Below, piece after piece: positions 6,260-64,000 of a DNA stretch of 64,000 bases. The DNA is from a virus: IMG/VR virus record IMGVR_UViG_3300037963_003542. One strand, given 5' to 3'. The notes beneath the pieces are model-generated. The model was not told the DNA's origin. It did no database searches and was given only the letters and a program-made list of their open reading frames with translations. A program made the position numbers and the translations under genes. The stretch's first letter is position 1; the number at the start of each line of letters is the position of its first letter.

Positions 6260-7060
6260 TTAGCGAAGAACAGCAACTAAAGAATATCTAATTGTATTCG
6301 GAACATCTGATCTAAAATACACACTATGCCAATACTTTCCTTTATATAAAGAAACTGAATTAAAATCTGCTGAGATTTTATGATATTGAGCGAAGTCTTT
6401 ATCACCACTATAATATGGCCAAGGAGTTACATCTGAAGAATTTTCAACATAAGAATCTAATGAAGATTTATATTTTAACACATCATTAGAATTTCCAGAT
6501 CTGAACAACTCTTCATTGGTGTAGTACTCTTTTTCATCTCCAATAAATTTATAAAAGGAGGTTCCAGTATCTTCAACGTCTGTTAGATATATATTTCCAG
6601 CATATTTAAATTGGTCTAAATGCGGTCTATAATTTAACCTATAGGATTTCATTCCAGAATAAATGCAGTTGGTATAGAATTCCCACAATGGAGGAGACCA
6701 ACCATAATGAACTAATTTATTTTTCTCCATAATATTATGGAGACTTTTGGAAATTGATTTAAACCAGAAAGCATTCATTACTTGCTGAAATCCTGGAGAT
6801 TTACTTCCTCTAACATTTTCCCCACCATTCACTAAAGTTTTCATTAGGTCTTCGGCAGGAAAATTAATAAGAAAATTCCTAAGATCAACAGGATTCTTAA
6901 GAAAATTTCTTATTTTCAGATATTCCAGTTTCTCTACCTTACATACTTCTATATCGCAATCAGGATTGACTTGAGTAATTTCTTCAATTTCTTGATATGA
7001 ACATCTATAAAATTGATCCAAAGAAATATTATTCTTCGGATCAATTACATTATCACTCAT
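6260..7060 (-). CDS. 2OG-Fe(II) oxygenase-like protein (DUF6445-like)
   Basis: PHLD HxD motif, then AGNIYL, GTSFYK, and a distal WHS His followed by RYS. Consistent with a double-stranded beta-helix oxygenase fold. Confidence 0.65.
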   Translation of the reverse strand: MSDNVIDPKNNISLDQFYRCSYQEIEEITQVNPDCDIEVCKVEKLEYLKIRNFLKNPVDLRNFLINFPAEDLMKTLVNGGENVRGSKSPGFQQVMNAFWFKSISKSLHNIMEKNKLVHYGWSPPLWEFYTNCIYSGMKSYRLNYRPHLDQFKYAGNIYLTDVEDTGTSFYKFIGDEKEYYTNEELFRSGNSNDVLKYKSSLDSYVENSSDVTPWPYYSGDKDFAQYHKISADFNSVSLYKGKYWHSVYFRSDVPNTIRYSLVAVLR

Positions 7061-7898
7061 AATCTTGATCTTCTGCTGGGGTATAACTACATGCTAAAGA
7101 GTATCTGAGATTCTTTTCTGTTGATGCATCATAATCTGCATTATGCCAGAAAGCTCCTTTATATGCTGTGAGTGTATTAAATTTAAATGGAGCGGTATGA
7201 TATCTCTCAAAAACATGATGATTGTCAGGAATAGAAATATAAGTTTCTGGAGACAGATCATCAACTTGTTGAAGTGAATTCAATAATTTACTCAACTCTA
7301 CTCTGTCCTCAAGTTCAGTAACCTCAGATAAAGAAACCACTGATGGATATTTCTCATCTTTGAACTTGAGATTATAAAATGACGTACCACCGCCAATTTC
7401 TTCTTCACTAAGATATACATTAAATCCAAACATAGATTGATCAAATCTAGGCATAAAATTATTATGCCAATTCTTCATGTTTGGTCTAAAAATATTTGTA
7501 TAATATGAGAATTGAGCAAGTTGATTGCTCAAACCATTCATATCTTGTGCAGCCCAATAATCTTTTTCAACAAAATCATAATCTACAAGAAGTTTATATA
7601 AAATAAATGACACTCCTTCCAGATAGGAATTTGGAATGATTTGCTGCTCTCCAGGAGGTTTAATCATAAATTGATTGGGATCTTCAGATTGCTGAAGTTC
7701 TTCAAAAAATCTATCTTTATTCTGTACTGGAAATTTTTTTAATGCCTCTATAACTGCATCGGGATCACTAAAGAAATCATGAACAGTGATAATAGTTAGA
7801 TCATCAATAACTTGCTTTTCGACCTCAAAATTTTTGTTGATTTCAAATGCGTACTTAAAATCAACCTGACTAAACTCATCATATTTTACATTAATCAT
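7053..7898 (-). CDS. 2OG-Fe(II) oxygenase-like paralog (DUF6445-like), first His replaced
   Basis: Aligns by eye to 6260..7060 (PRFD...FNVYL...GGTSFY...FNTLTAYKGAFWHN...RYSL). Confidence 0.6.
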   Translation of the reverse strand: MINVKYDEFSQVDFKYAFEINKNFEVEKQVIDDLTIITVHDFFSDPDAVIEALKKFPVQNKDRFFEELQQSEDPNQFMIKPPGEQQIIPNSYLEGVSFILYKLLVDYDFVEKDYWAAQDMNGLSNQLAQFSYYTNIFRPNMKNWHNNFMPRFDQSMFGFNVYLSEEEIGGGTSFYNLKFKDEKYPSVVSLSEVTELEDRVELSKLLNSLQQVDDLSPETYISIPDNHHVFERYHTAPFKFNTLTAYKGAFWHNADYDASTEKNLRYSLACSYTPAEDQDYE

Positions 7899-8335
7899 GC
7901 TTCAATCTCCTCCTCTCTTCCTTGTCCGTCCAGCGCAGATGCATCAATACCTTGAGTAACAACAGTCTTATCAGTATTTACTGTTACTCTATTCGTATGT
8001 TGCTCTAGATAATGCTGAACGATTGTACTGTATGCTTCAGTAACTACTTTGTGAGGATCGTAAATACAATCAATGAAGTCATACTGCAAATCAAATTCTC
8101 TCGTCGATGCTAGAGGACACCAAGATCTGAATGCATATGATGCTGGAGTTTCATCTCCACCACCAACTTCAGTATTATTTTCAGTCAAAGTAAGTTTTTC
8201 TTCAAATTTATAATCAACAACATAAGGGTGTTCGATTCTATATCCCAATGCTTTATTTTGTCCCTGATCAATAACTTCTCTTACGTCAGCAATAACAGTT
8301 TCTCCTGTACGAAGGAGACAGACTTTGATACTCAT
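7895..8335 (-). CDS. Cyanophage Sm-like domain protein
   Basis: Likely start MSIKVCLLRTGETVIADVREV at 8335, downstream of a sigma70 promoter. N-terminal hhLxoGExhh motif shared with four other ORFs in the window. Confidence 0.6.
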   Translation of the reverse strand: MSIKVCLLRTGETVIADVREVIDQGQNKALGYRIEHPYVVDYKFEEKLTLTENNTEVGGGDETPASYAFRSWCPLASTREFDLQYDFIDCIYDPHKVVTEAYSTIVQHYLEQHTNRVTVNTDKTVVTQGIDASALDGQGREEEIEA

Positions 8336-8357
8336 GAAAAACTCCAGATTTGAATAA

Positions 8358-8386
8358 ATTATAGTACGGTTTGCAGTACTCGTCAA
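8358..8386 (-). promoter_or_regulatory. sigma70-type early promoter
   Basis: TTGACG-17 bp-TATAAT on the minus strand, upstream of the Sm-like/oxygenase operon. Confidence 0.8.
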
Positions 8387-25450: not shown

Positions 25451-25966
25451 ATGACCCAGGCAAATTGGTTAGAAAATAAGATTGATAATCTTAACTACCT
25501 GGCACCACAAGGTTTTAAATTATCAATTGAAAAATTTCCTAAGGTAGCATATCTTTGTCAATCAGCAAACATTCCTGGTGTAAGAATTCCTGACATCAGT
25601 GTTGCTACTCCTTTTAGAGATATTCCTATTGCTGGAACTGAGACAGAATACGAAGATCTTACCGTAAGATTTTTGATTGATGAGAACATGGAAAACTATG
25701 TCTCAATTCATAAATGGATTGTGAAGACTGGTCTTGCAGAAAGATATGACACTGACAAAGATCCTGAAGAGGGATGGGTTTCATTAGAAATTTTAAACAG
25801 TAACTTTAATTCTAATATTCAGATTGAGTTTGAAAATGCATGGCCTACTGCATTAACACCAGTAGCATTTGATGCTACTGAAACGGGAGTTCAATACCTC
25901 ACCGCAACTGCCACCTTTAAATACAGCATATATAGAATTAAGTATAATGGAGAAGTGATTAGTTAA
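25451..25966 (+). CDS. gp3: Tail tube terminator/completion protein (gp3-like)
   Basis: NYLAPQGFK...FxCQSANIPG...YEDLTVRFLIDENMENY...F.NAWPTAL...ATATFKY, just upstream of uvsY. Confidence 0.75.
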   Translation: MTQANWLENKIDNLNYLAPQGFKLSIEKFPKVAYLCQSANIPGVRIPDISVATPFRDIPIAGTETEYEDLTVRFLIDENMENYVSIHKWIVKTGLAERYDTDKDPEEGWVSLEILNSNFNSNIQIEFENAWPTALTPVAFDATETGVQYLTATATFKYSIYRIKYNGEVIS

Positions 25967-26394
25967 TGACATTTGAAGAGATTCAGGCGATGTGGGAACA
26001 GGACTCAAAGATTGATCCTGTTGAACTTGATACCGCTGCACTTAGCATTCCCACACTACATTCAAAATATTTAAAAATCTTTTCTGACTACAAATTTAAA
26101 AAGAAACTAGCAGTACTAGATCTTAAACAACTTAACAGACGCAAGTTTGAATACTATGCGGGACGAGGATCCGTAGAAGATTATAAAGAAGAACCTTTTG
26201 ATCTCAAGGTTCTTAAATCAGATCTGCCAATGTATATTGAGTCTGATTCTCAGGTCAAAGAACTGCAGATGAAGATTGATATGTATGACATCATCATTGA
26301 ATACCTGGAAAGTGTAATCAGGATGATCAACAATCGCTCATACCAGATCAAGAATGCGATTGAATGGAAATCATTTATTGAAGGAATTAAGTAA
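25966..26394 (+). CDS. uvsY: Recombination mediator UvsY
   Basis: IPTLHSKYL...EYYAG...YLESVIRMINNRSYQIKNAIEW. Confidence 0.92.
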   Translation: MTFEEIQAMWEQDSKIDPVELDTAALSIPTLHSKYLKIFSDYKFKKKLAVLDLKQLNRRKFEYYAGRGSVEDYKEEPFDLKVLKSDLPMYIESDSQVKELQMKIDMYDIIIEYLESVIRMINNRSYQIKNAIEWKSFIEGIK

Positions 26395-27866
26395 TGTCAG
26401 ACATTATCATTAGAAAGAAGAACGAAGTATACCTGCTAATTGATTGCGAACCACATATTAAATATGAACTCTCAGAGTATTTCACCTTTGAAGTACCCGA
26501 TGCAAAGTTCATGCCACAATACAAGAAAAAGTATTGGGACGGTAAAATCAGATTGTTCTCCCCTGCTAATGGTGAACTGTATATCGGTCTGCTGCACTAT
26601 CTGATTGAGTGGGCAGAGGAACGAGACTATACTTATTCCTATGAAGACAATGAGTTCTATGGCAAGGTTGTAGAGAAAGATCCTTACATTTTGCCAGCGA
26701 CTGTAAAAGAATATCTGGACTACCTTACAGAAGGTACTCAGATTAAACCTAGAGACTATCAGTATAACGCAGTATATAAAGCACTGAAGAACTATAGAAA
26801 GATTATCTTGTCACCTACAGGGTCTGGCAAATCTTTCATGATCTATTCTCTGGTCAGATACTTCACTGCTGCACAACTTAAGACACTGATTATTGTTCCT
26901 AGTATCTCACTGGTGACACAGTTGTTTAAGGACTTCCAAGACTATGGTTGGAACGCAGAAGACTATTGCCACCAGATCTATCAAGGTGAAGCGAAAGTTT
27001 CTGATGCTCCTGTAGTCATCACGACATGGCAGTCAATCTACAAACTGCCCAAAAAGTATTTTGATTCTTACACTGCGGTGATCGGAGACGAGTGCCATAC
27101 GTTTAAGGCAAAGTCTTTGACAAGTATTATGACGAAACTCCATGAAGCAAAATATCGCATCGGATTTACAGGTACACTGGACGGAACGAAAACTCACCGT
27201 CTGGTTCTTGAAGGTTTGTTCGGATTATCTGATAGGGTTACTAGTACTGCTGACCTTATGAAGCGTGATCAACTCACGCAACTGAAAATTAAGATCCTGG
27301 CACTCAAGCATGAATCGTATAAGTTTGCGAACTATCAAGATGAGATGGAATACATTGTCACTCATGGTAAGCGTAACACATTCATCAAAAATCTAGTAAG
27401 TGATCTGAAAGGAAATACTCTGGTGCTATTCAACTATGTGGAGAAGCACGGCGAACCCCTTTTTGATTTGATAAATAACAGCATAGGGGATACTAAAAAA
27501 GTATTCTTCGTTCATGGTGGTGTGGAAGCATCTGAACGAGAGGAAATTAGAAGACTAGCAGAAGTAAATGATAACTGTGTTATCATCGCATCATACGGAA
27601 CCTTTTCCACAGGTATTAACATTAAGAATCTCCACAATATTATTTTTGCTTCACCAAGCAAATCAAGGATTAGGAATCTACAATCTATTGGTAGGGTCCT
27701 TAGAAAAGGAGATAACAAAGCTCAAGCAGTGCTGTATGACATTGCTGATGATTTTTCTAGAGGGAGTTATATTAACTATACACTCAATCATCTTAAAGAA
27801 CGAATCAAAGTCTATAACGAAGAGCAATTTAATTATGAAATTATCCCAGTAAACATTAAAAAATGA
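26394..27866 (+). CDS. uvsW: DNA helicase UvsW
   Basis: SPTGSGKS, GDECH, GFTGT, STGINIKNLH and QSIGRVLR SF2 motifs. Confidence 0.96.
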   Translation: MSDIIIRKKNEVYLLIDCEPHIKYELSEYFTFEVPDAKFMPQYKKKYWDGKIRLFSPANGELYIGLLHYLIEWAEERDYTYSYEDNEFYGKVVEKDPYILPATVKEYLDYLTEGTQIKPRDYQYNAVYKALKNYRKIILSPTGSGKSFMIYSLVRYFTAAQLKTLIIVPSISLVTQLFKDFQDYGWNAEDYCHQIYQGEAKVSDAPVVITTWQSIYKLPKKYFDSYTAVIGDECHTFKAKSLTSIMTKLHEAKYRIGFTGTLDGTKTHRLVLEGLFGLSDRVTSTADLMKRDQLTQLKIKILALKHESYKFANYQDEMEYIVTHGKRNTFIKNLVSDLKGNTLVLFNYVEKHGEPLFDLINNSIGDTKKVFFVHGGVEASEREEIRRLAEVNDNCVIIASYGTFSTGINIKNLHNIIFASPSKSRIRNLQSIGRVLRKGDNKAQAVLYDIADDFSRGSYINYTLNHLKERIKVYNEEQFNYEIIPVNIKK

Positions 27867-28270
27867 ACGATAAATTCTTCGCCACAATCAAGTTGATGAC
27901 TGGAGAAGAAATTGTTGGACTAGTTGAAGTTCATGAAGAGGGTCTTGTAATACAGAACCCTCTCATATTGGAGGACATGAGTGACCTACAAGATTTATTA
28001 GGTGACGATATTAAAGTATCAGGATTAAGATTATCTAAATGGATTAAATCAACTACGGACAACATTTTCTTTATAACAGATACAAAGATAGTAACAGTCA
28101 ATGAACTGTTAGAACCAGGATTAACTCATTACAAAAAAGCAGTTACACAAATCAACGAAACATTTAAGAAAAAAATTTCTAAAGCAGAAGACAAAAAAAA
28201 GTACAACGGATACAGAGCATCAGTAGAACATGCTAGAGAATTCTTTGAAGATCTATTCAATAGTTATTGA
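27863..28270 (+). CDS. Sm-like domain protein
   Basis: FATIKLMTGEEIVGLV...NPL...LSKW motif. Conserved position after uvsW. Confidence 0.55.
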   Translation: MNDKFFATIKLMTGEEIVGLVEVHEEGLVIQNPLILEDMSDLQDLLGDDIKVSGLRLSKWIKSTTDNIFFITDTKIVTVNELLEPGLTHYKKAVTQINETFKKKISKAEDKKKYNGYRASVEHAREFFEDLFNSY

Positions 28271-28272
28271 TG

Positions 28273-28307
28273 TACGCATCTGCGATGCGTATTGATCTGC
28301 GATCAAT
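28273..28307. repeat. Tandem pair of perfect inverted repeats sharing ATC-TGC-GAT core
   Basis: TACGCATC-TGC-GATGCGTA and ATTGATC-TGC-GATCAAT, cores 17 bp apart. Confidence 0.9.
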
Positions 28308-28364
28308 TACTATGTTATTATTAAATATATAAAGCTATTGTTTCTCTTGAACCCTTACAGAGTT

Positions 28365-28393
28365 ATTCTACACATGGAATCCACTCTTGTCAA
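28365..28393 (-). promoter_or_regulatory. sigma70-type promoter firing leftward (no downstream ORF)
   Basis: TTGACA-17 bp-TAGAAT with TG extension, on the minus strand. Confidence 0.7.
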
Positions 28394-28414
28394 GCTTTTA
28401 ATCTGTGTTATAAT
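28387..28414 (+). promoter_or_regulatory. sigma70-type promoter for gp55
   Basis: TTGTCA-16 bp-TATAAT with extended TG. Confidence 0.75.
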
Positions 28415-28447
28415 GTAAGTACAATAATCTAAGGAAGATGAAAGACA

Positions 28448-28924
28448 ATGAGATCCAAAAAGAAACCAGAACATTATGTAGACAATAAAGAGTTCTTAGC
28501 AGCACTGTCCGAGTACAAAAGAAATGTGCAGGATGCCTTGGCAGAGGAAGCACCACGTCCTATGATTCCTAATTATATCGGTGAGTGCTTCTTGAAGATT
28601 GCTCAGCATCTGTCCTACCGTCCTAACTTCATCAACTATCCTTTCCGTGAGGACATGATCAGTGATGGTATTGAGAACTGTGTTCAGTACATTGACAACT
28701 TTGATCCTGATCGTGGTAACCCATTTGCATACTTTACTCAAATTATTTACTATGCATTCTTGAGAAGAATCCAAAAAGAAAAGAAACAACTAGAAATTAA
28801 GAGCAAAATTCTTGAACGTTCTGGATACGATGAAGTCCTTTACGCTGATAAGAACGAACTGAACTTCTCCTCCTCCGACTATAACGGAATCAAACAGAAC
28901 ATTGAGCAGAAAACTAGAAAATGA
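28448..28924 (+). CDS. gp55: Late transcription sigma factor gp55
   Basis: HYVDNKEF...YIGECFLKIAQHLSYRPNFINY...EDMISDGIENC...NPFAYFTQIIYYAFLRRIQKEKKQ. Confidence 0.96.
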   Translation: MRSKKKPEHYVDNKEFLAALSEYKRNVQDALAEEAPRPMIPNYIGECFLKIAQHLSYRPNFINYPFREDMISDGIENCVQYIDNFDPDRGNPFAYFTQIIYYAFLRRIQKEKKQLEIKSKILERSGYDEVLYADKNELNFSSSDYNGIKQNIEQKTRK

Positions 28925-29967
28925 AAATTGCCCTGATTACTGACACACATTATGGATTCAAAAAAGGCAATCAAGATTATCATGATTATTTCCTGAAGTT
29001 CTATAACGAAGTATTCTTTCCTACATTAAAGAAGAAAAAAATTAAGCACGTCATCCATCTGGGTGATGTGTTTGATATTCGTCGTAACATTGATTTTTGG
29101 AGCCTTGATTGGGCACGGAAGAACATCTTCAATCCTTTGCAGGACATGGGTGTTACAGTTGACATGATGGTCGGTAATCATGATTCATTTTATAAGAACA
29201 CTCTGGAGATCAATTCTCTGGAGTGTTTGCTGCAGGAGTATGATAACCTCCGTGTCTACACTGGACCTTCAGAGGTTACTGTCGGTGGTCGTAAGATGGT
29301 TTATCTTCCTTGGATCTGCGATCAGAATGAAGAACAGACAGTAAACCTTCTGAAGAAAACAGATGCTGAGGTTGTTCTTGGGCACCTGGAGATGGAAGGA
29401 TTCAAGACTAATCCTACCTATGTTGCTAATCATGGTAGGCAGACATCTGAGTTTTCTAAGTTTGAGTTGGTGATGTCAGGTCACTATCACACCAAGAGTA
29501 AGAAGGGTAACTTCCAATATCTTGGTAATCCATATCAGATGTACTGGAATGACTATGCTGACAAACGTGGATTCCATATCTGGGACACAGAGACTCTGAA
29601 GTTAGACTGGATCAAGAATCCATACGAGATGTTCCAGAAGATCTTCTATGATGATACTAAGAATGAGTATTGCACTCTAGACTTTGATGACTACAAAGAT
29701 ACAGTTGTCAAACTAGTTGTGGAAAACAAAACAGACTACACTATGTTTGATTACATTGTCAATGGTCTGCAAGATGTTGTGCTAGATCTTAAAATTATTG
29801 AAGACTTCTCTACTGAAGTTGATGACGATGATGACATAGAACTAGAACATGAAGACACATTGACCATCCTAGAGAAGTATGTTGACGAACTTAATACCAA
29901 CCTAGATAGTCATAAGTTAAAGGAGATCATGAAGTCTCTTTACGTTGAGGCACTGGAGGTGGTATAA
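28921..29967 (+). CDS. gp47: Recombination endonuclease subunit gp47 (Mre11-like)
   Basis: ITDTHYG, HLGDVFD, VGNHD, GHLE and SGHYH metallophosphoesterase motifs. Confidence 0.95.
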   Translation: MKIALITDTHYGFKKGNQDYHDYFLKFYNEVFFPTLKKKKIKHVIHLGDVFDIRRNIDFWSLDWARKNIFNPLQDMGVTVDMMVGNHDSFYKNTLEINSLECLLQEYDNLRVYTGPSEVTVGGRKMVYLPWICDQNEEQTVNLLKKTDAEVVLGHLEMEGFKTNPTYVANHGRQTSEFSKFELVMSGHYHTKSKKGNFQYLGNPYQMYWNDYADKRGFHIWDTETLKLDWIKNPYEMFQKIFYDDTKNEYCTLDFDDYKDTVVKLVVENKTDYTMFDYIVNGLQDVVLDLKIIEDFSTEVDDDDDIELEHEDTLTILEKYVDELNTNLDSHKLKEIMKSLYVEALEVV

Positions 29968-34387: not shown

Positions 34388-34961
34388 ATCTTTCAATAAC
34401 TATGATTATTATCATGGTAAACTTCCAGTAGATGATTTAAAAAAAATCAAGGAACTATGTCAAGTATCAAATTCAGGTGAAAGAGCTAACTCTCATTTAG
34501 CTGGATTTATTGAAAATGAATATGTGCTGAAAAAGGAATGCAGAGATTTAGTTCTGCCGCATATTTACAAAGGTGCTTGTTCTATGCTTGATAACCCATC
34601 AATGAGATGGAGGAATCTAAGTTCTTGGATAAATTATCAAAAAAAGTACGAAGTAAATCCTCTTCATAACCACACAGGAATGTTGAGTTATGTCATGTGG
34701 ATTAATATTCCATATGATCTTGATGATGAATTGAATCTCGATCACATTAAAAATTCTACCTTAAGGCAAGATGCAACTGCCTTTACGTTTGTGTATATGG
34801 ATGTTCATGGTACACTTCGTCAACAACCCTTCCAATTAACTAAAGAAGATGAAGGTGATTTTATTATTTTTCCTGCACAAGTACATCACATGGTGATGCC
34901 ATTCTATACTTCTGATGGTTATAGAATATCTATTGCTGGAAATATTGCACCCCGAAATTGA
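34359..34961 (+). CDS. 2OG-Fe(II) oxygenase family protein
   Basis: WINYQ...NPLHNHTGMLSYVMWI...FPAQVHHMV...RISIAGN. Confidence 0.8.
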   Translation: MNQPLNQNVRSFNNYDYYHGKLPVDDLKKIKELCQVSNSGERANSHLAGFIENEYVLKKECRDLVLPHIYKGACSMLDNPSMRWRNLSSWINYQKKYEVNPLHNHTGMLSYVMWINIPYDLDDELNLDHIKNSTLRQDATAFTFVYMDVHGTLRQQPFQLTKEDEGDFIIFPAQVHHMVMPFYTSDGYRISIAGNIAPRN

Positions 34962-35782
34962 TTATGAAAGCATTGAAAACCCCCCTTCGTTATCCTGGTG
35001 GCAAGTCTCGCGCCACCAAGTATCTTCTCCCGAGATTTCCTGAGGAAATCAAAGAATATCGTGAGACATTTCTTGGTGGTGGTAGTGTTGCCATCGCATT
35101 TAGTAAAGCAAATCCAGATACTCCAGTTTGGGTTAATGATCTTTATGAACCTCTCTATAATTTCTGGAGAGTATTGCAAGATGATGGCGTTAAACTTCAT
35201 CGCCGCTTGCAGGAACTTAAGTCTAGGTATCCTGATCAAGCATCTGCTAAAGGTTTATTTCTAGAAGCAAAGGAACTTGTAAATGACTATTCCATATCCA
35301 ATCTATCTCGCGCTTGTGCTTTTTACATTATTAACAAGTGCTCTTTTTCTGGTCTCACTGAGTCCAGCTCCTTCTCCAGACAGGCGTCTGATAACAATTT
35401 CTCGATGTCTGGAATTGAGAAACTAAAAGGATATACTTACATCATTCGCAACTGGAAGATTACTAACTGGTCATATGAAGGACTTCTTACTGATGATAAG
35501 AGTACTTTCATCTATCATGATCCTCCATATGACATTAAAGATAACCTCTATGGCAAGAAGGGAGATCTTCATAAGCGGTTTGATCATGATCAGTTTGCTC
35601 TTGACTGCGACCGTTTCGTCGCTCGTCAAATGATCTCCTATAACTCCACTCAGATGGTCAAGGATCGCTTTAAAGATTGGTTGGCATGTACTTATGACCT
35701 CACTTATACTATGCGCTCCACAGGCGATTACATGAACGAACAGAAGGACCGTGCTGAATTACTGCTGACTAATTATGAATGA
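34958..35782 (+). CDS. dam: DNA adenine methyltransferase (Dam/D12 class)
   Basis: LRYPGGKSRA, F.GGGSV, VNDL and DPPY motifs. Confidence 0.9.
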   Translation: MIMKALKTPLRYPGGKSRATKYLLPRFPEEIKEYRETFLGGGSVAIAFSKANPDTPVWVNDLYEPLYNFWRVLQDDGVKLHRRLQELKSRYPDQASAKGLFLEAKELVNDYSISNLSRACAFYIINKCSFSGLTESSSFSRQASDNNFSMSGIEKLKGYTYIIRNWKITNWSYEGLLTDDKSTFIYHDPPYDIKDNLYGKKGDLHKRFDHDQFALDCDRFVARQMISYNSTQMVKDRFKDWLACTYDLTYTMRSTGDYMNEQKDRAELLLTNYE

Positions 35783-38009: not shown

Positions 38010-38720
38010 ATGAAAACATATAGGGATTTAAAACTTACTCTTCGCTATAATACTCAGTTAAATTCTAAGTTCTGGGTTGGCGAATCAATGAAACCTGAGG
38101 TTCGTGAGGGTTTGATTCGTATTGCTGAAGAGTGGGCAGAGTTTGCTAACATCCCTTCTGCTGCTATTATTGATGTCGTTCTGGTAGGTGGAAATGCCAA
38201 TTACAATTATACTAAGTATTCTGACCTGGACCTTCATCTTATTGTCTCCAAAGAAGATATTGCCGATTGTCCTGATCTCATTGATGATTACTTACGAGAC
38301 AAAAAACAATTATGGGCTCTCACCCATGATATTCAGATCTATGGACACGATGTTGAACTCTATGCCCAAGATAGAAGAGATCCCGCCCCTTCGGGTCAGG
38401 GAGTTTTCTCCCTGGTAAATAGTCTGTGGTTGCGTCGTCCTACATATCAGGATGTAAATCTTGCAGATCCTAACATTGCTAAGAAGGTAATGCACTATAT
38501 GGAGAAGATTGATTTCCTGATTGATAATAAGGCAGATGACCGTGATGCATTTGAAAAACTCAAAGAGAAACTGCGTGACATGAGAGCGTCTGCTATTCAA
38601 CGTGGCGGAGAGTTTGCTGTAGAGAATCTTGTATTCAAAGAACTCCGTAATCGTGGATACCTAGATAAGATGTCTGAACATCTTAGAAACCTTAAGGACA
38701 CCAGCTTGTCAATCGACTGA
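38010..38720 (+). CDS. Pol-beta-superfamily nucleotidyltransferase
   Basis: GGNANYNYTKYSDLDLH (G-G/S-x9-DxD) and a third acidic strand DVELYAQD. Confidence 0.75.
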   Translation: MKTYRDLKLTLRYNTQLNSKFWVGESMKPEVREGLIRIAEEWAEFANIPSAAIIDVVLVGGNANYNYTKYSDLDLHLIVSKEDIADCPDLIDDYLRDKKQLWALTHDIQIYGHDVELYAQDRRDPAPSGQGVFSLVNSLWLRRPTYQDVNLADPNIAKKVMHYMEKIDFLIDNKADDRDAFEKLKEKLRDMRASAIQRGGEFAVENLVFKELRNRGYLDKMSEHLRNLKDTSLSID

Positions 38721-38734
38721 CCTCATGCTATAGT
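38706..38734 (+). promoter_or_regulatory. sigma70-type promoter for Sm-like/gp43 operon
   Basis: TTGTCA-17 bp-TATAGT with TG extension. Confidence 0.7.
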
Positions 38735-50064: not shown

Positions 50065-50822
50065 AAAACATTAGAAAACTTCTACAACAAGCGAGATATA
50101 AAATGTGGGAGGAACCAACTAACTCAGTTGGTACTGGTGCCAATGTTGCACTACCTCCAGCACATGAACCTCCTGGTATCCCTGCCAGCAAGAAGAAAAA
50201 AAAGTATGATGGTAGAACTAAAGCAGGTCGTAAACTTGTAAACCGTATTTTAACCAACCGAGAGAAGCGAGCAAAGAAAAAAATGGCACAAGAACAACAC
50301 ATCATTGAGGCAGACGATAAGAAGGAAGGACCTTCAGAGACTGAGCGTGCTCAGAAACAGATTGCCCAACAAAAGAAACTGAACAAGCAGAAGGAAGTTC
50401 AGAAGAAAGCGCAGGATGCCAAAGGCAAAATGCAGAACAAGACTAAGGAGATGGACACTCTGATGAAGGCACGTCTGTCTGACTTTAGAAAGAAGGCTGC
50501 TAAGAAGCAATCTTCACTCCAGAGACAGACTCAGGAGAGCGTTGAGATTGAAGAGGCAGCAGGCACACAGGCACCTGGCGTAGAAGTTCTTGGCACCCTG
50601 ATGAAACTTGCTCAGGAAGATACCTATGGAAATCAGGAAGTAGAAGGACATATCCAGTTTAAGGATGGTCGCTCACTGAGAGTCAACAGCGATGTTGCTA
50701 AGAGAATGGTTTCCACTTTTGAAGCACTTGACACTGCTCGTCAGGACCAGTATCGTTTCCTGATGAACAAGAGTGTTGAATCTTTCCTCCAGATTATGAG
50801 ATTCGATCCATCGCAGATGTGA
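50061..50822 (+). CDS. Basic/coiled-coil late protein, possible prohead-core-related
   Basis: EEPTNSVG, KYDGRTK and C-terminal IQFKDG...MNKS..SF domain. CTAAATA at 50050. Confidence 0.6.
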   Translation: MKNIRKLLQQARYKMWEEPTNSVGTGANVALPPAHEPPGIPASKKKKKYDGRTKAGRKLVNRILTNREKRAKKKMAQEQHIIEADDKKEGPSETERAQKQIAQQKKLNKQKEVQKKAQDAKGKMQNKTKEMDTLMKARLSDFRKKAAKKQSSLQRQTQESVEIEEAAGTQAPGVEVLGTLMKLAQEDTYGNQEVEGHIQFKDGRSLRVNSDVAKRMVSTFEALDTARQDQYRFLMNKSVESFLQIMRFDPSQM

Positions 50823-58048: not shown

Positions 58049-58815
58049 TGGATATTCCTGAAATTACTGGCGTCAATGTTGAAATTAAAGATATTAAGAT
58101 TGACGCCATTACTACATATCGTTATACACCACCATCAGTTCCTACTGCTCCACCAGTAACGGTGGACATTGGCGTGCCTGTTGTTAATATTCCTGGATGT
58201 GTAGAAGCACACGAACAAAATACTAGTAGAGAAAGAAGTGGTATTCTTTCAGAGGATGATCCTAAAGGAGTAAAAACTTATTGTGATGCTGGCGTACCAT
58301 CATTCAATCCTATAGATTATAATAAAGATAAGTTAGAATTTGATTATGAGCAACCAGTTCCTGTAGTGAGACCTCCTGAGCAACCAGAGGTAGAGTCACC
58401 TAAAACAGAAACACCAAAAATTCCTAGTTGCCCTACGAGAGAACAGCAACTAAAAAACCCTGTAGGAAAAATCCTAGAGGGCAATAAAAAGATTACTGGT
58501 TACGAACAGGTCGGTAAAGAATGTTTGATGGTTACAGATAACTTGAGCATTCCTGATCAAATTGTACAGAATATTCCTAATCCTGGAGTAGTAACTACTA
58601 CTGCTAGTATTGCTGTGGTCGCTACAACATCAGCACTGTTAGCAAAACCGCTGGCAGATCTACTTTTAAAAGTAGTCAAACCAACGGTTAAGAAAGTTAT
58701 TAAAAAGATTGCTGCTATTCGTGGGAAGAATGTAAAGGTTGAGTCCTTAAGGGAGCGCCAAGGTCAGCAGCGGATTCGGAATAAGGCGATTCGCGTGTTG
58801 AAGGGCCGGGAATAG
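58048..58815 (+). CDS. Pro-rich hypothetical membrane protein
   Basis: PGCVEAH...CDAGVPSFNP, TTASIAVVATTSALLAKPL hydrophobic segment, basic tail. Confidence 0.7.
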   Translation: MDIPEITGVNVEIKDIKIDAITTYRYTPPSVPTAPPVTVDIGVPVVNIPGCVEAHEQNTSRERSGILSEDDPKGVKTYCDAGVPSFNPIDYNKDKLEFDYEQPVPVVRPPEQPEVESPKTETPKIPSCPTREQQLKNPVGKILEGNKKITGYEQVGKECLMVTDNLSIPDQIVQNIPNPGVVTTTASIAVVATTSALLAKPLADLLLKVVKPTVKKVIKKIAAIRGKNVKVESLRERQGQQRIRNKAIRVLKGRE

Positions 58816-59626
58816 CATGGACGTGAGGGTGTGTATGTCCAGGAGGATTGTTCACTAACACGTCAGCACACACAGAATAATAAGGACTTTTGGGATGAAA
58901 TTGAATTCCCTTTTTCATTAATTCTCCGCAATTTTTGAGACGAGCGATCTCAAAATCAAGCCTTTTATTGGCAGTATTTTGTCTCATAAAATCAATGTTT
59001 GCTTGTGCAGCTGCCTTACATTGTTCTTGTAGTTTCTTATCTAATGGTCTAGACCATGTGGCAGAGAAACCTACACCAATGCTAAAGTTATCCTTCTGTC
59101 CAGTTCTTGTAGGAACTTGATATAAAATAGAGCCAGGATTATCGGGAGCCCCATCGGCAATATCATTACCATCATCATCTAATGCACCTGTAAGATCTCT
59201 CATATCGTAGACAGGAGAGTCATAGTATGCTTCATATGGTCTTGTTACTGATGCTGTTCCAGTAACATATGGCGTAAAGTTTAAGGTTGGACCTTGACAC
59301 TGGATTCCATTCCCATAAGTATTCGTAATGTAAGGTCCTTGTAAAACCTGGATTGCCTGGTTTGTGACGCTACCAGAACTATTAGCAATAGGAGAAGCGG
59401 TAGCACTGACCCCACCAACAGTTTCTGCCAGAGATTGAGATGGGAGTAAGGCACTTAAAATTACTGCTGGAAGATACTTGTAGTATCGGTTACGCTTGTA
59501 ACCTCTGTTGTTCTTTGAATGATCGTATGATTTTGTAAACCAGGAGAAGATAGAGTTTCTGTGAACTGAAACGCTGCTCCTGGTGTTGTCTGTGTGAAAG
59601 TCGGTTTTGAATTCACTCCCGTCCAT
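58715..59626 (-). CDS. Putative exported protein (beta-strands plus coiled coil); start uncertain
   Basis: Signal-like KRNRYYKYLPAVILSALLPSQSLA, then CQGPTL, IGVGFSATWSRPLD, DFEIARLKNCG. Confidence 0.65.
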   Translation of the reverse strand: MDGSEFKTDFHTDNTRSSVSVHRNSIFSWFTKSYDHSKNNRGYKRNRYYKYLPAVILSALLPSQSLAETVGGVSATASPIANSSGSVTNQAIQVLQGPYITNTYGNGIQCQGPTLNFTPYVTGTASVTRPYEAYYDSPVYDMRDLTGALDDDGNDIADGAPDNPGSILYQVPTRTGQKDNFSIGVGFSATWSRPLDKKLQEQCKAAAQANIDFMRQNTANKRLDFEIARLKNCGELMKKGIQFHPKSPYYSVCADVLVNNPPGHTHPHVHAIPGPSTRESPYSESAADLGAPLRTQPLHSSHE

Positions 59627-59898
59627 TTTGATGTCACTCCATTAATAGTTACGTTAACTTCAGATGTTGAAGGTGATAAATTTCCACTAGCGGTTACGCC
59701 AGAACCCGTTGCCGAGTACTGATAACCAGTGGAATAGTCCATGCTGTTTATTGTTTCTGTGATCTTTTGAGTTGTCTCTGTGTGGCTCGTCATTGAGCCC
59801 TGTGTGAAGTTTGGGACAACGGGGACCGCCATGGCAGCTGCAGGTATGACACTTGCAACCGCCACACTTAGGACAGACCAACGAATCATAGTATTCAT
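59461..59898 (-). CDS. Putative exported Thr/Ser-rich protein
   Basis: GGAGG RBS, signal peptide ending AAAMA, VPVVPNFTQGSMTSHTET. Confidence 0.75.
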   Translation of the reverse strand: MNTMIRWSVLSVAVASVIPAAAMAVPVVPNFTQGSMTSHTETTQKITETINSMDYSTGYQYSATGSGVTASGNLSPSTSEVNVTINGVTSKWTGVNSKPTFTQTTPGAAFQFTETLSSPGLQNHTIIQRTTEVTSVTDTTSIFQQ

Positions 59899-59909
59899 TG
59901 AGCTCCTCC

Positions 59910-60416
59910 TCAGTCAATTACAGTAATCTCACTAACAAATTGTCCTGTCGCTGTAGTACCAGCTCCACCAGCCGTGATGCTGATAGCACCAGTAGTGCCA
60001 ATAGTACCTGCCAAATCTCCTGCAGTTCCAGCTGTGTAAGAAGTAATTGAAGAGAAGTTAGGAACAGCACCTACAGTTGGTGCTGATTGAGGAACAGCAT
60101 CAGCCTGTGTGTAAGACTGACTGAAACTAAATGCATTACCAGGAGTATCCTGAGTTGCTGCAATAGTACCAGGACTGTATACACCAGAGGTGATAGTACC
60201 AGCAGAAATAGTATTTGCTGTCGTACCGTCCGTGGTATCCACTCCACTACCTGAGATACTGAACGACGAACCAATTCTAGATGCAGTAGATCTTGCAGCA
60301 TCAACAGTCAGCTGAACACTGGATGCGTGCTTAGTAACAAGTCCGCCAGCATTTGCTGCACCTGCGGTCATCAGTAACATTCCAAAAGCAATTGCTGCTT
60401 TATTCATTTTGGTCAT
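59910..60416 (-). CDS. Putative exported Thr/Ser/Gly-rich protein
   Basis: Signal peptide ending AANA. Late promoter TATAAATA at 60432-60439 (minus). Confidence 0.75.
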   Translation of the reverse strand: MTKMNKAAIAFGMLLMTAGAANAGGLVTKHASSVQLTVDAARSTASRIGSSFSISGSGVDTTDGTTANTISAGTITSGVYSPGTIAATQDTPGNAFSFSQSYTQADAVPQSAPTVGAVPNFSSITSYTAGTAGDLAGTIGTTGAISITAGGAGTTATGQFVSEITVID

Positions 60417-60431
60417 GGTGATGTTCAGCTG

Positions 60432-60457
60432 TATTTATACAAAAGGGACTAGTTCCC
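60432..60457 (-). promoter_or_regulatory. Terminator then late promoter TATAAATA (minus strand)
   Basis: GGGA-ACTAG-TCCC-TTTT followed by GTATAAATAC. Confidence 0.7.
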
Positions 60458-60468
60458 AATGATACAAA

Positions 60469-60648
60469 TTACAACAAAATTAAACCAATCAATACTCCTT
60501 TGCCAAAGGTAAGCCACAGAAGTTTATAGTCTGTGAGATTAAGTTTTTTTCTGTACCAGCGGATTAGTTTCTTGTGCTGCATTGCAGCATCATCTAATTT
60601 TTGTTCAACGTGCCAAGCTAGTGATCTTTTCTTTCTTTTAAATGCCAT
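60469..60648 (-). CDS. Small basic protein with C-terminal TM (not in ORF track)
   Basis: 59-aa ORF MAFKRKKRSLAWHVEQ...LLWLTFGKGVLIGLILL. Confidence 0.6.
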   Translation of the reverse strand: MAFKRKKRSLAWHVEQKLDDAAMQHKKLIRWYRKKLNLTDYKLLWLTFGKGVLIGLILL

Positions 60649-60695
60649 GTTATGATTGTACGCAAATTACTGTTCTTTGACTGACCATACGGCAT

Positions 60696-60935
60696 TCAAA
60701 AGAATTCGCCGTCGTCACTGATTTGATAGTCGCGACTGTGATCGTGAACAGCATTACTGTCTGTGCTACGATCAGGTACGGAACTATTTTCGCCACCCTC
60801 TTCGAGTTCTTCATATGCCAATGTAAGTATTGTATATATGTAATAAGAAACGCCCGCTAGAAGAATGATGAGACACCAGATAATACTCCAGGTCACATCA
60901 TTTACATCTTCTAGTGGGCGCAAAAATAAATTCAT
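60696..60935 (-). CDS. Small single-TM protein
   Basis: NDVTWSIIWCLIILLAGVSYYIYTIL. Confidence 0.7.
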   Translation of the reverse strand: MNLFLRPLEDVNDVTWSIIWCLIILLAGVSYYIYTILTLAYEELEEGGENSSVPDRSTDSNAVHDHSRDYQISDDGEFF

Positions 60936-61177
60936 GGGTTTCTCGGATCAATTCCCAACTGTTTTAGATATTCAATCCACCAGTCGGCGTCCTTTATATA
61001 TCTCCAATTAGGAACCTCCTCACCACGTTCTACAACATAGTATTGATAGAGGGCATCATCTATAGTCTGTGCGATCTCCATACTCTTCTTCCGCTGCATC
61101 AACATCTTCATATGGATTTTCCACGAAGGGTCCTCGTTTTCGTAAAGGTTCTCGTCTGACATAATCCTGCTCGGCAT
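60932..61177 (-). CDS. Small hypothetical protein (true start probably MEIAQ)
   Basis: IDDALYQYY...PNWRY...WWIEYL. Upstream part overlaps the neighbouring ORF. Confidence 0.6.
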   Translation of the reverse strand: MPSRIMSDENLYENEDPSWKIHMKMLMQRKKSMEIAQTIDDALYQYYVVERGEEVPNWRYIKDADWWIEYLKQLGIDPRNP

Positions 61178-61268
61178 TAACTACTTCTATCCATACGGCA
61201 AGTTTCATTACTATGTAGATGATTGCCAGTGGTAAGAAACATGCAATTAAAGTGATTTGATATTTCAT
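61056..61268 (-). CDS. Small single-TM protein
   Basis: LIACFLPLAIIYIVMKLAVW...EEEYGDRTDY. Confidence 0.7.
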   Translation of the reverse strand: MKYQITLIACFLPLAIIYIVMKLAVWIEVVNAEQDYVRREPLRKRGPFVENPYEDVDAAEEEYGDRTDYR

Positions 61269-61459
61269 ACGAAAATCCTCGGTTCTCCGTCCTCGTCGTC
61301 ATGATAATCTGTCTGCATTCTACAATCCCACCAGTCATCACCTTCTTCATAGTCTGGTTCATATAGTGGGCAAGGTTCTTCAAACAGGTGAGACATTCTC
61401 AACTGTTTAACTCTCTCATTTAATGATTTATAAAAATCTCTTTTTTCTTCGGGGCTCAT
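61265..61459 (-). CDS. Small acidic hypothetical protein
   Basis: Start MSPEEKRDFY overlapping the upstream TGA; HLFEEPCPLYE motif. Confidence 0.6.
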   Translation of the reverse strand: MSPEEKRDFYKSLNERVKQLRMSHLFEEPCPLYEPDYEEGDDWWDCRMQTDYHDDEDGEPRIFV

Positions 61460-61614
61460 TTGTGTTCTTTTGTGAATGGTTCCCAGTGTTCCCAACCATA
61501 TTTGTGGACTAAGTGCATACCAATAATGGGCACAAAAACTAAGAAAAACCCCATGACACCTAGACACCATGAGGTTTGCATAACAGATCTTACAAAGAGT
61601 TGGACGTGAGTCAC
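61456..61614 (-). CDS. Small single-TM protein (not in ORF track)
   Basis: GTG start overlapping the talC stop; ...LGVMGFFLVFVPIIGMHLVHKYGWEHWEPF. Confidence 0.6.
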   Translation of the reverse strand: MTHVQLFVRSVMQTSWCLGVMGFFLVFVPIIGMHLVHKYGWEHWEPFTKEHK

Positions 61615-62258
61615 GTTGATTCCCAGTCCTTCTGGAATTGATCCAGACCAGCGTCTGTCAGAACATGATCATACATTTTCCAGAATACTTTAGGTGGCAT
61701 AGTCACAACACTTGCACCATAAGAATAACAACGGGAGACATGGTGGACATCTCGCAATGATGCTGCAAGAATTTCAGTGGACATTCCTTGTACAGCATAT
61801 GCGTTAGCGATTGCACGGACCAATTCAACTCCACTGAATGAGTTATCATTGCAACGTCCTACAAAGGGTGAGCAGTATGTTGCACCTGCTTTTGCTGCCA
61901 TCAGTGCTTGTGCTACAGAGAACACAAGAGTCACATTAGTTTTGACACCCATAACAGAGAGTGCCTTACATGCAATCAATCCTTCTACAGTACAAGGTAC
62001 TTTGATAGTAACTGCTTTACTTCCTAATTGAATGAACTGTTGAGCCTGTTCAATCATTTCTTCAGCAGTCTCGGCAACCACCTCACATGACACACTTTCA
62101 AACTCTGGATATGTAGTAGTCAGTTCTCTAGCAACATCAGGAAGAGTTCTTCCACTACGCTTAATCAGTGTAGGATTGGTTGTTACACCATCAATCAATC
62201 CAGTGCGTCGTGCTTTTTTAATTTCATCAAGATCAGCGGTGTCTAAAAAGATTTTCAT
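61611..62258 (-). CDS. talC: Transaldolase TalC
   Basis: IFLDTAD, GVTTNPTLI, TIKVPCT, NVTLVFS, SPFVGR, LAASLR, TDAGLDQF. Confidence 0.97.
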   Translation of the reverse strand: MKIFLDTADLDEIKKARRTGLIDGVTTNPTLIKRSGRTLPDVARELTTTYPEFESVSCEVVAETAEEMIEQAQQFIQLGSKAVTIKVPCTVEGLIACKALSVMGVKTNVTLVFSVAQALMAAKAGATYCSPFVGRCNDNSFSGVELVRAIANAYAVQGMSTEILAASLRDVHHVSRCYSYGASVVTMPPKVFWKMYDHVLTDAGLDQFQKDWEST

Positions 62259-62286
62259 GAGTTAAAATACCTGTGTATTATTTAGT

Positions 62287-63630
62287 TTATGCTGGGTAGT
62301 CCCAGTTTGTGATAAAAGCAGTTTTGTGTGTTGGACCCCATCCACCTGTGTAGAGGTAGGGTGCCGTGCGAACGGGACAAGCTTCACCTACACAAAGAAG
62401 ATCATCTACGATTCTCCATGATTCTAATACTTCTTCCGAATGCACAAAGTGTGATTGATCACCATTTATAGCTTCATATAAAAGTTTTTCATATCCATCA
62501 ATTGCTCTTTCCTCAGGATACTTATGAGTAAGAGTTGCAGTTTCAACTTGATCACCATGTCCAGGTGCTTTCATATCAATGCGAATATCAAAGTGTGGAG
62601 ATGGTTGCAAGCGCATGACAATACGATCATTGTATTCATGACCCTCGAACAATTGTTGAGGAGGTGCTTTGAGTTTAACGACAACTTCTACACACTGGTA
62701 AGGCATCTTCTTGCCCGTCATGACATGAAAAGGAACTCCCTCCCAACGCCAGTTATCGACGAATAAAGTACCAGCGAAATAGGTAGGAGTGTGACTCCTA
62801 GAATCAACGCCCTCTTCATTACGGTAGCCATCGTACTGTCCTAAAATAACGTTCTCGCTCATTCTAGTGGCGGCGAGTACCTTTGTCTTCTCACGTCTGA
62901 GTTCCCTGGCATTCATACGAGATGGTGCTTCCATCGCAATGAGTGCAAGAACTTGTAAGATATGGTTTTGTAGCATATCGCGTACAGCACCAGCAGTCTC
63001 GTAGTATTGAGAGCGACCTTCACATCCAATAGTTTCAGTTGCAAAAATTTGAACTTCTTCTATGTACTGCCTATTCCAAAGTGGTTCCAATAGAATATTG
63101 CTAAAGCGGGTGGCAAGGATGTTATTAACAGTATCTTTGCCGAGATAATGATCAATGCGATAGACTTGTTTTTCGCGTAGATGTCGCTCCACCACTGACT
63201 GTAAATGATCAGCAGATTTATAATCGTGCCCAAAGGGTTTTTCGATAACCACTCTGGAGTGATCTGGGTCATCCAAGAACCCAGCCTCTTTAAGATTGAT
63301 GATTGCATTTGCATACCTCTCTGGTGGAACAGATAAGAAATAAGTTGTGTCTGCGCTATCATCATGAAGTTTCATCAGACTCTCTTGGCAATCAAGATCG
63401 CAGGAGATGAAATCCATCCAAGTAGTAAACTCTTCAGGATAATCTCCAAGTTTCTCTAACCAAACATCTTTAGGAAGATCTCTACGAGATGCTCCAACAA
63501 TTAAAATATTTTTTGGAAGAAGTTCCTTTTTCCATAACTCATAGAGTGCTGGAATAAGTTTCTTTTTACATAGATCTCCAGCAGCACCGAAGATTACAAT
63601 GCGTCTAGTGAGCGGTTCCGTTTCCATCAT
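62287..63630 (-). CDS. zwf: Glucose-6-phosphate dehydrogenase
   Basis: IFGAAGDL, IEKPFG, RIDHYLGK, RDMLQNH, RWEGVPF, TGK. Likely start MMETEP at 63630. Confidence 0.97.
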   Translation of the reverse strand: MMETEPLTRRIVIFGAAGDLCKKKLIPALYELWKKELLPKNILIVGASRRDLPKDVWLEKLGDYPEEFTTWMDFISCDLDCQESLMKLHDDSADTTYFLSVPPERYANAIINLKEAGFLDDPDHSRVVIEKPFGHDYKSADHLQSVVERHLREKQVYRIDHYLGKDTVNNILATRFSNILLEPLWNRQYIEEVQIFATETIGCEGRSQYYETAGAVRDMLQNHILQVLALIAMEAPSRMNARELRREKTKVLAATRMSENVILGQYDGYRNEEGVDSRSHTPTYFAGTLFVDNWRWEGVPFHVMTGKKMPYQCVEVVVKLKAPPQQLFEGHEYNDRIVMRLQPSPHFDIRIDMKAPGHGDQVETATLTHKYPEERAIDGYEKLLYEAINGDQSHFVHSEEVLESWRIVDDLLCVGEACPVRTAPYLYTGGWGPTHKTAFITNWDYPA

Positions 63631-63733
63631 ACTTGTCTGTTTCGTAGTAGTTATTTTCACCTTTTCGTACCCCGAAATATATCGTGGCCAGTACAAACGG
63701 TATTGCAATCCATTTGAGGACATCAGCGAACAT
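63605..63733 (-). CDS. Small single-TM protein between gnd and zwf (not in ORF track)
   Basis: 42-aa ORF MFADVLKWIAIPFVLATIYFGVRKGENNYYETDKYDGNGTAH, overlapping both neighbours. Confidence 0.65.
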   Translation of the reverse strand: MFADVLKWIAIPFVLATIYFGVRKGENNYYETDKYDGNGTAH

Positions 63734-64000
63734 TGTGCCCCCCGAACATGTACCGCATACCATTCAATACCTTGAAAGCGAAAGCCCCCAAGCGACGTGA
63801 TTCAAAACGCTCAAACAACGCCGTAGAAATAACAGGAGTGGGTACACCCAAATCGACAGCGGCATGAACAGTCCAGCGACCCTCACCGCTATCGGAAACC
63901 CCTCCATCGAACTTATTAAGCTCAGTATTGCCCCGTAATACATCCGCAGTAAGATCCAATAACCAACTGCCGACCACGCTACCACGACGCCACAACTCAG
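63723..64000 (-). CDS. gnd: 6-phosphogluconate dehydrogenase, 3' end (partial)
   Basis: WRRGSVVGSWLLDL...VSDSGEGRW...MRYMFGGH. Runs off the right edge. Confidence 0.95.
   Translation of the reverse strand, partial: ELWRRGSVVGSWLLDLTADVLRGNTELNKFDGGVSDSGEGRWTVHAAVDLGVPTPVISTALFERFESRRLGAFAFKVLNGMRYMFGGHNVR

Follow-up and report, generated by a model that had tools for sequence, protein, structure and literature searches.

A putative early-type antisense promoter beside the late sigma factor gene g55 of T4-like cyanophages, and the twin-hairpin insertion of one sub-lineage

Why would a phage family keep a promoter that points against all of its neighbors and has no gene to serve? The question arises at a 177-nt intergenic region in the stretch of viral DNA analyzed here (64,000 nt, hereafter the window), which belongs to a T4-like cyanomyovirus of 40% GC whose closest isolates share at most about 72% nucleotide identity with it. 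The original prediction saw in this region an R-loop origin of replication, composed of a minus-strand promoter, an AT-rich unwinding tract and two hairpins, with an antisense RNA as the alternative.

Between 8.4 and 58.8 kb nearly every gene of the window lies on the plus strand, and minus-strand gene blocks are found at 6260-8386 and 58715-64000 only. The gene order around the locus is a gp19-like gene, uvsY (25966-26394), uvsW (26394-27866), a gene for an Sm-like protein of 135 aa (27863-28270, plus strand, phrog_471), the intergenic region, g55 (28448-28924, plus strand), g47, DUF3110 and g46, with uvsY upstream of uvsW and uvsW adjoining the Sm-like gene. The assignment of g55, encoding the late-transcription sigma factor, is based on a weak Sigma70_r2 match and on annotated isolate homologues, including that of Syn9. 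The Sm-like gene is labelled "methylamine utilization" in isolate records, a label that seems unfounded because the sole Pfam signal of the protein is a sub-threshold match to Sm_like (E 7.5e-5). From left to right, the intergenic region contains hairpin 1, hairpin 2, an AT-rich tract, a conserved block (~28326-28371) and two overlapping promoters.

The leftward promoter and its predicted transcript

The minus-strand promoter on which the original prediction was built, TTGACA-17-TAGAAT, is present in the window and kept across the family. Its -10 hexamer TAGAAT (28365-28370, minus strand) is exactly 17 nt from its -35 hexamer TTGACA (28388-28393, minus strand), the latter falling beyond the span of 28273-28370 originally assigned to the locus. 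The promoter scores 11/12 and, together with the plus-strand promoter that it overlaps, is the window's best match. The overlapping partner is that of g55 (TTGTCA-16-TATAAT, 28387-28414, plus strand, with an extended -10 TG at 28406-28407), and in this clade its TTGTCA (28387-28392) overlaps the leftward -35.

The conservation of the leftward promoter was followed in two samples of IMG/VR loci, 80 around relatives of the window gp55 (99% to 65% amino-acid identity) and 80 centred on the gp55 of Syn9. In the first sample, where two loci were truncated, an antisense TTGACA followed at exactly 17 nt by TAnnnT was found in 79/79 informative loci; 77 of these have it in the usual place, and in L002 and L007 the motif is further upstream, separated from g55 by an inserted 2OG-Fe(II) oxygenase gene. 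The second sample gave 79/79 loci, which brings the pooled count to 158/158 informative relatives. The promoter was also found in Syn9, in P-SSM5, a phage of Prochlorococcus, and in S-SRM01, a freshwater phage. For Syn9 (NC_008296, minus strand), the predicted positions are 123,733-123,728 for the -35, 123,710-123,705 for the -10 and about 123,698 for the transcription start. All six bases of the -35 are invariant among the 158 relatives, positions 1, 2 and 6 of the -10 never change, and the middle bases of the -10 differ (TAGAAT, TACAAT, TAGGAT, TAGACT, TATAAT, TATGAT, TAAAAT, TATACT, TACACT). The spacer is scrambled in sequence and fixed in length at 17 nt. A chance match to this pattern is expected in less than 0.3% of loci. 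Such a pattern is the one predicted for a sigma70 promoter; judged from the alignments, the leftward promoter is almost certainly real, and strong purifying selection for a sigma70 promoter here, acting throughout the phage family, is strongly supported.

By blastn, the conserved block matches 74 isolate records and is annotated in none of them (0/74); S-RIM44, Syn1 and S-H9-2 share a 25-nt core at 100% identity. A 23-nt core is found once in the 64-kb window when up to 3 mismatches are allowed, and the window has no obvious site complementary to it. Readings of the block as an NtcA, Pho-box or LexA-box site, compared by eye only, gave no match. A literature search on cyanophage start sites and antisense RNAs, with the Syn9 transcriptome (Doron et al. 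2016) outside its reach, returned nothing on this locus.

Given that the two promoters overlap in the window, the leftward one could be thought a by-product of the g55 -35. In distant clades, g55 has a distinct promoter, a TTGACA/TTTACA-17-TATACT/TACACT site that lies a few bases rightward of the leftward one. Extra genes have also entered between the shared -35 (TTGTCAAGC) and the g55 -10, the block of which (TGTTATAAT) is invariant in alignment A1. This is the case in L002 (2411-2956) and, at the same position, in L007, where the inserted gene is the 2OG-Fe(II) oxygenase already mentioned, and in L087/L089, where it sits immediately right of TTGTCAAGC. In every case the insertion has occurred rightward of the leftward -35, with the leftward promoter left on the Sm-like side; the junction right of TTGTCAAGC is an insertion hot spot. 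Since the leftward promoter is conserved both where the g55 -35 is separate and after g55 has been displaced, it is no by-product of that -35, and the comparison points to an independent site, not a shadow of the g55 promoter. In the Syn9 clade (L101-L180, e.g., L090:23719-23734), the two -35 hexamers are arranged as a perfect inverted repeat, TTGACA-N4-TGTCAA, and the g55 -35 sits within the spacer of the leftward promoter, so that two polymerases must compete for overlapping DNA.

Transcription from the leftward promoter would start at the G at 28358, 7 nt past the -10, a position derived from promoter geometry and from a conserved T-G step (alignment A2). The first 20 nt of the predicted RNA (GUAAGGGUUCAAGAGAAACAA, 28338-28358, minus strand) are conserved and rich in G and purines (34-42% G and 5-8% C among 72 distinct relatives), the remaining antisense strand being pyrimidine-rich, and sequence conservation covers 35 nt after the predicted start. 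From +20 to +60 the GC content drops to 21-25%, the minimum within ±400 nt in the same 72 relatives. No leftward ORF is conserved among them (with starts within 200 nt, the longest ATG ORF has a median length of 10 aa), and the predicted RNA is therefore regarded as non-coding. The claim that the promoter fires into non-coding DNA is thereby borne out, there being no ORF for it to serve. Across the family we found no conserved intrinsic terminator or defined small-RNA 3' end for the leftward RNA, and the Rfam 15 covariance models gave nothing relevant at E <= 1 in 27000-29500. The predicted RNA runs antisense to the Sm-like 3' end and, on extension, to uvsW, uvsY and the late block; with a promoter opposite coding genes and no ORF, it would qualify as a cis-antisense RNA. 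The palindrome AACCCT-TAC-AGAGTT around the predicted start was considered as a covarying hairpin and rejected, as RNAalifold found no consensus structure over 68 sequences and the palindrome is stable in some clades only (~0 to -1.6 kcal/mol in the window's clade).

The twin hairpins and the insertion that carries them

The two perfect hairpins of the original prediction are both there. Hairpin 1 (TACGCATC-TGC-GATGCGTA on the plus strand, 28273-28291) starts 3 nt past the Sm-like stop codon and is followed by hairpin 2 (ATTGATC-TGC-GATCAAT on the plus strand, 28291-28307); read on the minus strand, both have C-GCA-G loops. Each folds better than nearly all dinucleotide-preserving shuffles, as DNA or as RNA and on either strand (z -3.5 to -6.4). 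Nearest-neighbor energies, from models that omit the GNA bonus, favor neither strand. The two hairpins are the only C-TNC-G/C-GNA-G triloop hairpins with stems of at least 7 bp in the 64 kb. The 9-mer ATCTGCGAT is common to both. It also occurs within coding regions at 29314-29322 (plus strand) and 50810-50818 (minus strand), with no hairpin there, and the resulting four copies compare with 0.5 expected, 1 of 100 shuffles reaching four. A long-range stem between 28260-28271 and 28302-28313 is not kept in L001 and is therefore taken as a by-product of the TATTGAT duplication.

Part of the case for an origin had been that one hairpin carries two GATC sites while the phage encodes a D12-class (Dam-type) adenine methyltransferase (34958-35782). 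This argument is void, as GATC is common throughout the window (352 sites against ~230 expected from base composition), with 18 GATC pairs within 12 nt of each other across its length and no GATC cluster at the locus.

Hairpins and AT-rich tract belong to an insertion of ~57 nt (28271-28325), which in alignment A1 is present in the window and L001 and cleanly absent from seven other close relatives. It is flanked by direct repeats of GTTATT (28263-28268 and 28314-28319). Overall, it was found in four sequence variants of one sub-lineage, namely the window (=L085), L001 (=L082), L086 (=L088) and L087 (=L089), and is missing in about 154 of the 158 relatives. The alignments thus read as a recent lineage-specific insertion of the hairpins together with the extreme AT-rich tract. 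We also searched for the cassette elsewhere by exact and degenerate scans of IMG/VR and a scan of one metagenome; these returned only this locus in its four variants, plus chance matches, and the idea of a dispersed hairpin family or mobile element was dropped.

Within the sub-lineage, the hairpins vary in a structured way. In L001, hairpin 1 reads TACCCATC-TAC-GATGGGTA, with a compensatory G:C to C:G exchange in the stem and a changed middle loop base. In hairpin 2 the middle loop base differs between variants (TGC, TAC, TCC), the stem being retained in L086 and L087. Across the four variants, one stem pair has changed in a compensatory manner and no stem change leaves a base unpaired. Three changes have hit the loops, each of them at the middle base, so that the loop stays T-N-C on the plus strand and G-N-A on the minus strand (GTA and GGA besides GCA) and the C:G closing pair is retained. 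If the loop positions were unconstrained, 3/3 changes at the middle base would have a chance of ~0.04. With three events this is thin, and deamination of cytosine in an exposed loop could likewise produce such a pattern. From the compensatory change and the G-N-A rule over three loop events, the hairpins are probably maintained by selection within the sub-lineage. The proposed check of hairpin conservation, through GCA loops and compensatory stem changes, thus succeeds inside the sub-lineage and fails outside it, given the ~154/158 relatives that have no hairpins.

As terminators, the hairpins are poor candidates by sequence. The consensus terminator scan did not call them, the stem of hairpin 2 has only 2 G:C pairs, and no U-run follows the hairpins directly on either strand, so that the combination of a G+C-rich stem and a U-run that marks an intrinsic terminator is lacking. 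On the plus strand, the tail after hairpin 2 is U-rich (UACUAUGUUAUUAUU; the tail UACUAUGU has 4 U in 8), and a weaker role as a 3' end or stabilizer may apply. Elsewhere in the window, at the end of the ORF 38010-38720, a stem-loop TAAGATGT-CTGA-ACATCTTA is followed by TTGTCA-17-TATAGT (38666-38734).

The AT-rich tract (28305-28344), the candidate unwinding element, lies mostly within the insertion. It had been described as very AT-rich, and indeed, out of 63,971 duplexes of 30 bp compared, only one is less stable than its segment 28305-28334. Several other intergenic regions of the window are as unstable, and AT-richness at gene ends is ordinary.

Mini-hairpins of related type were also seen far from this sub-lineage. 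In a recurrence scan (promoter plus two CGAAG) and a mirrored control scan, both biased by ascertainment, GCGAAGC-type motifs or twin C-TTC-G hairpins were found ~100-130 nt upstream of g55 in distant T4-like marine phages (L239, L290, L304 and L323), the gp55 proteins of which are 44-56% identical. L239 (5441-5475) has AAACTTGC-TTC-GCAAGTTT and GCTTCGC on the sense strand, equivalent to GCGAAGC antisense, 50-80 nt downstream of an antisense TTGACA-17-TATAAT, and L290 (3165-3215) has three GCTTCGC. The other two came from the control scan. The order in L304 is sense promoter, AT tract, twin C-TTC-G hairpins, g55 promoter; L323 has GCGAAGC on the sense strand. Among the matches listed, the GNA strand is antisense in L239, L290 and L304 and sense in L323; mini-hairpin motifs therefore recur before g55, mostly with GNA antisense, though not strictly so.

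A possible antisense control next to g55

We give about an even chance to a reading with two elements: an early antisense promoter kept throughout the family and coupled to that of g55, and a transcript boundary provided by the lineage-specific insertion of hairpins and AT-rich tract. A host-sigma70 early-type promoter directly after the Sm-like gene, sharing or abutting the g55 -35, would fire leftward against all neighboring genes and would produce a non-coding RNA from ~28358, antisense to the 3' end of the uvsY-uvsW-Sm-like unit. The RNA, or its transcription, may limit read-through and early expression of the upstream late/recombination block, and the leftward promoter may compete with or be coupled to that of g55. 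In this sub-lineage, the 57-nt insertion has separated the stop codon from the conserved block by the two hairpins and the AT-rich tract, and the hairpins may serve there as a two-way boundary. On the rightward side they would form the 3' end or a stabilizer of the upstream mRNA, given their start 3 nt past the stop codon and the U-rich tail UACUAUGUUAUUAUU behind them; on the leftward side, as a structured 3' end, they would confine the leftward RNA to ~90 nt.

Several observations sit uneasily with this reading. The boundary role has against it the failure of the hairpins in the terminator scan and their fixed outer triloop bases (T-N-C/G-N-A), which are not expected of ordinary RNA terminators. 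GCGAAGC-type motifs occur in the same intergenic region of distant T4-like lineages (L239, L290, L304), and a G-rich start followed by an AT-rich stretch would also suit an R-loop primer. GNA triloops with fixed outer bases match a motif of stable DNA mini-hairpins (PMC3201870, PMC13037366).

The predicted RNA resembles the phage cis-antisense RNAs in having a host-type promoter against coding genes and no ORF. Lambda OOP and the T4 "anti-late" RNA are of this kind. Antisense transcription has also been described for T4 gene 32 (Belin 1987, as cited in PMC2988021), and the cyanophage S-PM2 has the antisense RNA CfrI, at psbA (as cited in PMC2984593). The present case differs from CfrI in its place, at the uvsW/Sm-like-g55 boundary and not at psbA, and in that the RNA is a predicted one. 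It differs from the class as a whole in being conserved across a family, not known from one phage, and in a -35 region that is shared with or abuts the promoter of the late sigma factor gene.

The origin and other readings

An origin of replication comes next among the explanations, and we consider it unlikely, although less so than the two that follow. The leftward RNA would anchor a persistent hybrid in the AT-rich stretch by its G/purine-rich first 20 nt and prime leftward leading-strand synthesis, the displaced minus strand of this sub-lineage would fold into the two C-GNA-G mini-hairpins, holding the bubble open or marking a site of primosome loading, and UvsW would later remove the hybrid. 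Stated for the family, it is a tentative, low-probability proposal that the gene-less leftward promoter is a transcription-primed origin of all T4-like cyanophages, to which GNA mini-hairpins were added independently in several lineages. At the same low level of confidence, the G-rich start would then be the hybrid anchor, the AT-rich stretch the unwinding element and the GNA hairpins signals on the displaced strand.

The precedent is found in T4. Its minimal oriF and oriG are ~100 bp long, made of a promoter and an A+T-rich DNA unwinding element for which no particular sequence is needed; an early promoter serves oriE, and late-gene regions are where most of the early synthesis in T4 begins (PMC3016281). 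The locus is similar to oriF (uvsY), oriG (34) and oriE in having a host-RNA-polymerase promoter active before replication that is followed by an A+T-rich region, in lying in or beside late genes and in a phage that encodes UvsW (PMC3016281). In the family, the gene-less promoter is kept in 158/158 relatives, and the G-rich RNA start (34-42% G, 5-8% C) gives way to 21-25% GC at +20 to +60 in 72 of them. As to the AT-rich element of T4 origins, the tract of the window is the second weakest 30-bp duplex of the 64 kb and the family has its low GC; the extreme tract, however, is lineage-specific, gene ends are AT-rich in any case, and other intergenic regions are equally unstable. Moreover, the 35 nt past the start are conserved, which a T4-type unwinding element would not need and which suits an RNA or a protein site better. 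As in oriF and oriG, a promoter of pre-replication type is in place, though here of the sigma70 early class and not MotA-dependent. To our knowledge, MotA is lacking in cyanophages. While oriF is the uvsY promoter, the promoter described here serves no gene; the position downstream of uvsY-uvsW, after the Sm-like gene, is as claimed, but the comparison with ori(uvsY) breaks down at the point that in T4 the uvsY promoter itself primes. No GC-skew turn accompanies the locus at 28.3 kb. The turns are at ~8 kb and ~60 kb, where gene orientation switches, and a skew-based origin prediction would point there. The resemblance to T4 origins is thus architectural only.

The loops are the other part of the case. 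As DNA, GNA loops with a C:G closing pair have unusual stability, and they are found at the G4 and RSF1010 ssi origins (PMC3201870, PMC13037366), in agreement with the exceptional stability that had been claimed for them. In more detail, GNA mini-hairpin DNA has been described at G4 oric, RSF1010 ssiA and the promoters of N4 virion RNA polymerase (PMC13037366), and the closing pair affects its stability (PMC3201870). The hairpins share with it the 3-nt G-N-A loop, the 5'-C...G-3' closing pair, the free middle base (GCA, GTA, GGA) and the arrangement of adjacent hairpins near a promoter. Three of three loop changes keep G-N-A, and GCGAAGC-type motifs recur in the same intergenic region of distant T4-like phages. 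On the other hand, the hyperstable motif is d(GC-GNA-GC), whereas the core of both hairpins is ATC-GCA-GAT, with one C:G pair beside the loop and no second G:C pair, and the GNA strand is inconsistent, being the sense strand in L323. We also know of no single-stranded replication stage, RepB'-type primase or N4-type polymerase in T4-like cyanophages.

A further point against an origin is the absence of the hairpins and the extreme AT tract from ~154/158 relatives, which means that they are not an essential part of any conserved origin and are accessories at most. The original prediction was to fall if the hairpins were not conserved, and as conserved origin parts the hairpins and the tract do fall. 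What stands of it is the leftward gene-less promoter and the GNA loops; the conservation of hairpins and tract, the skew, the GATC/Dam argument and the ori(uvsY) layout do not. The alternative that it named, a non-coding antisense RNA, is no worse a fit than an origin, and sequence analysis does not separate the two. For cyanomyoviruses, origins are undefined save for one predicted in Syn9 (PMC2984593).

A trans-acting small RNA of ~90 nt, specific to the sub-lineage and directed at host or phage mRNA, would combine the promoter, a 5' seed and the twin hairpins as its 3' part. The conserved 5' 20-35 nt do resemble a seed, the hairpins fall at +52 to +86 of the predicted RNA and no ORF follows. 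We nevertheless hold this very improbable: most relatives have neither the 3' structure nor a terminator, the minus strand has no U-tract after the hairpins, Rfam gave no match, and the 23-nt core is without a second copy or an obvious complementary site in the window.

Equally doubtful is a purely plus-strand account, in which the hairpins terminate the uvsY-uvsW-Sm-like operon in the manner of PeSLs and the leftward promoter is a silent by-product of a palindromic g55 -35 and T-rich sequence: the start of hairpin 1 at 3 nt past the stop codon, the U-rich plus-strand tail after hairpin 2, the -35 common to both promoters in this clade and the PeSL precedent (PMC2839356, PMC4122927) speak for it, but the by-product idea fails on a minus-strand -35 conserved where that of g55 is separate, on TAnnnT at the exact 17-nt spacing in 158/158 and on the persistence of the element when inserted genes displace g55. 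Like PeSLs (Arbiol 2010, PMC2839356; Comeau 2014, PMC4122927), the hairpins are stem-loops placed at an indel junction and followed directly by an early sigma70-type promoter. PeSLs, however, are repeated, with many similar copies scattered in hyperplastic regions, and their descriptions include no second promoter conserved on the other strand; the hairpins here are single within the 64-kb window, between core genes, and no multi-copy family accompanies them there.

T4-like cyanophages are among the most abundant viruses of the ocean. One predicted origin (Syn9) and one known antisense RNA (CfrI) have been reported for them (PMC2984593). The leftward promoter is an unannotated, gene-less element that keeps a fixed place beside the late sigma factor gene in every sampled relative, and it would be a long-sought origin or else an antisense control common to the family and coupled to expression of the late sigma factor. 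The hairpin cassette, present in some close relatives and absent from others, provides a natural experiment.
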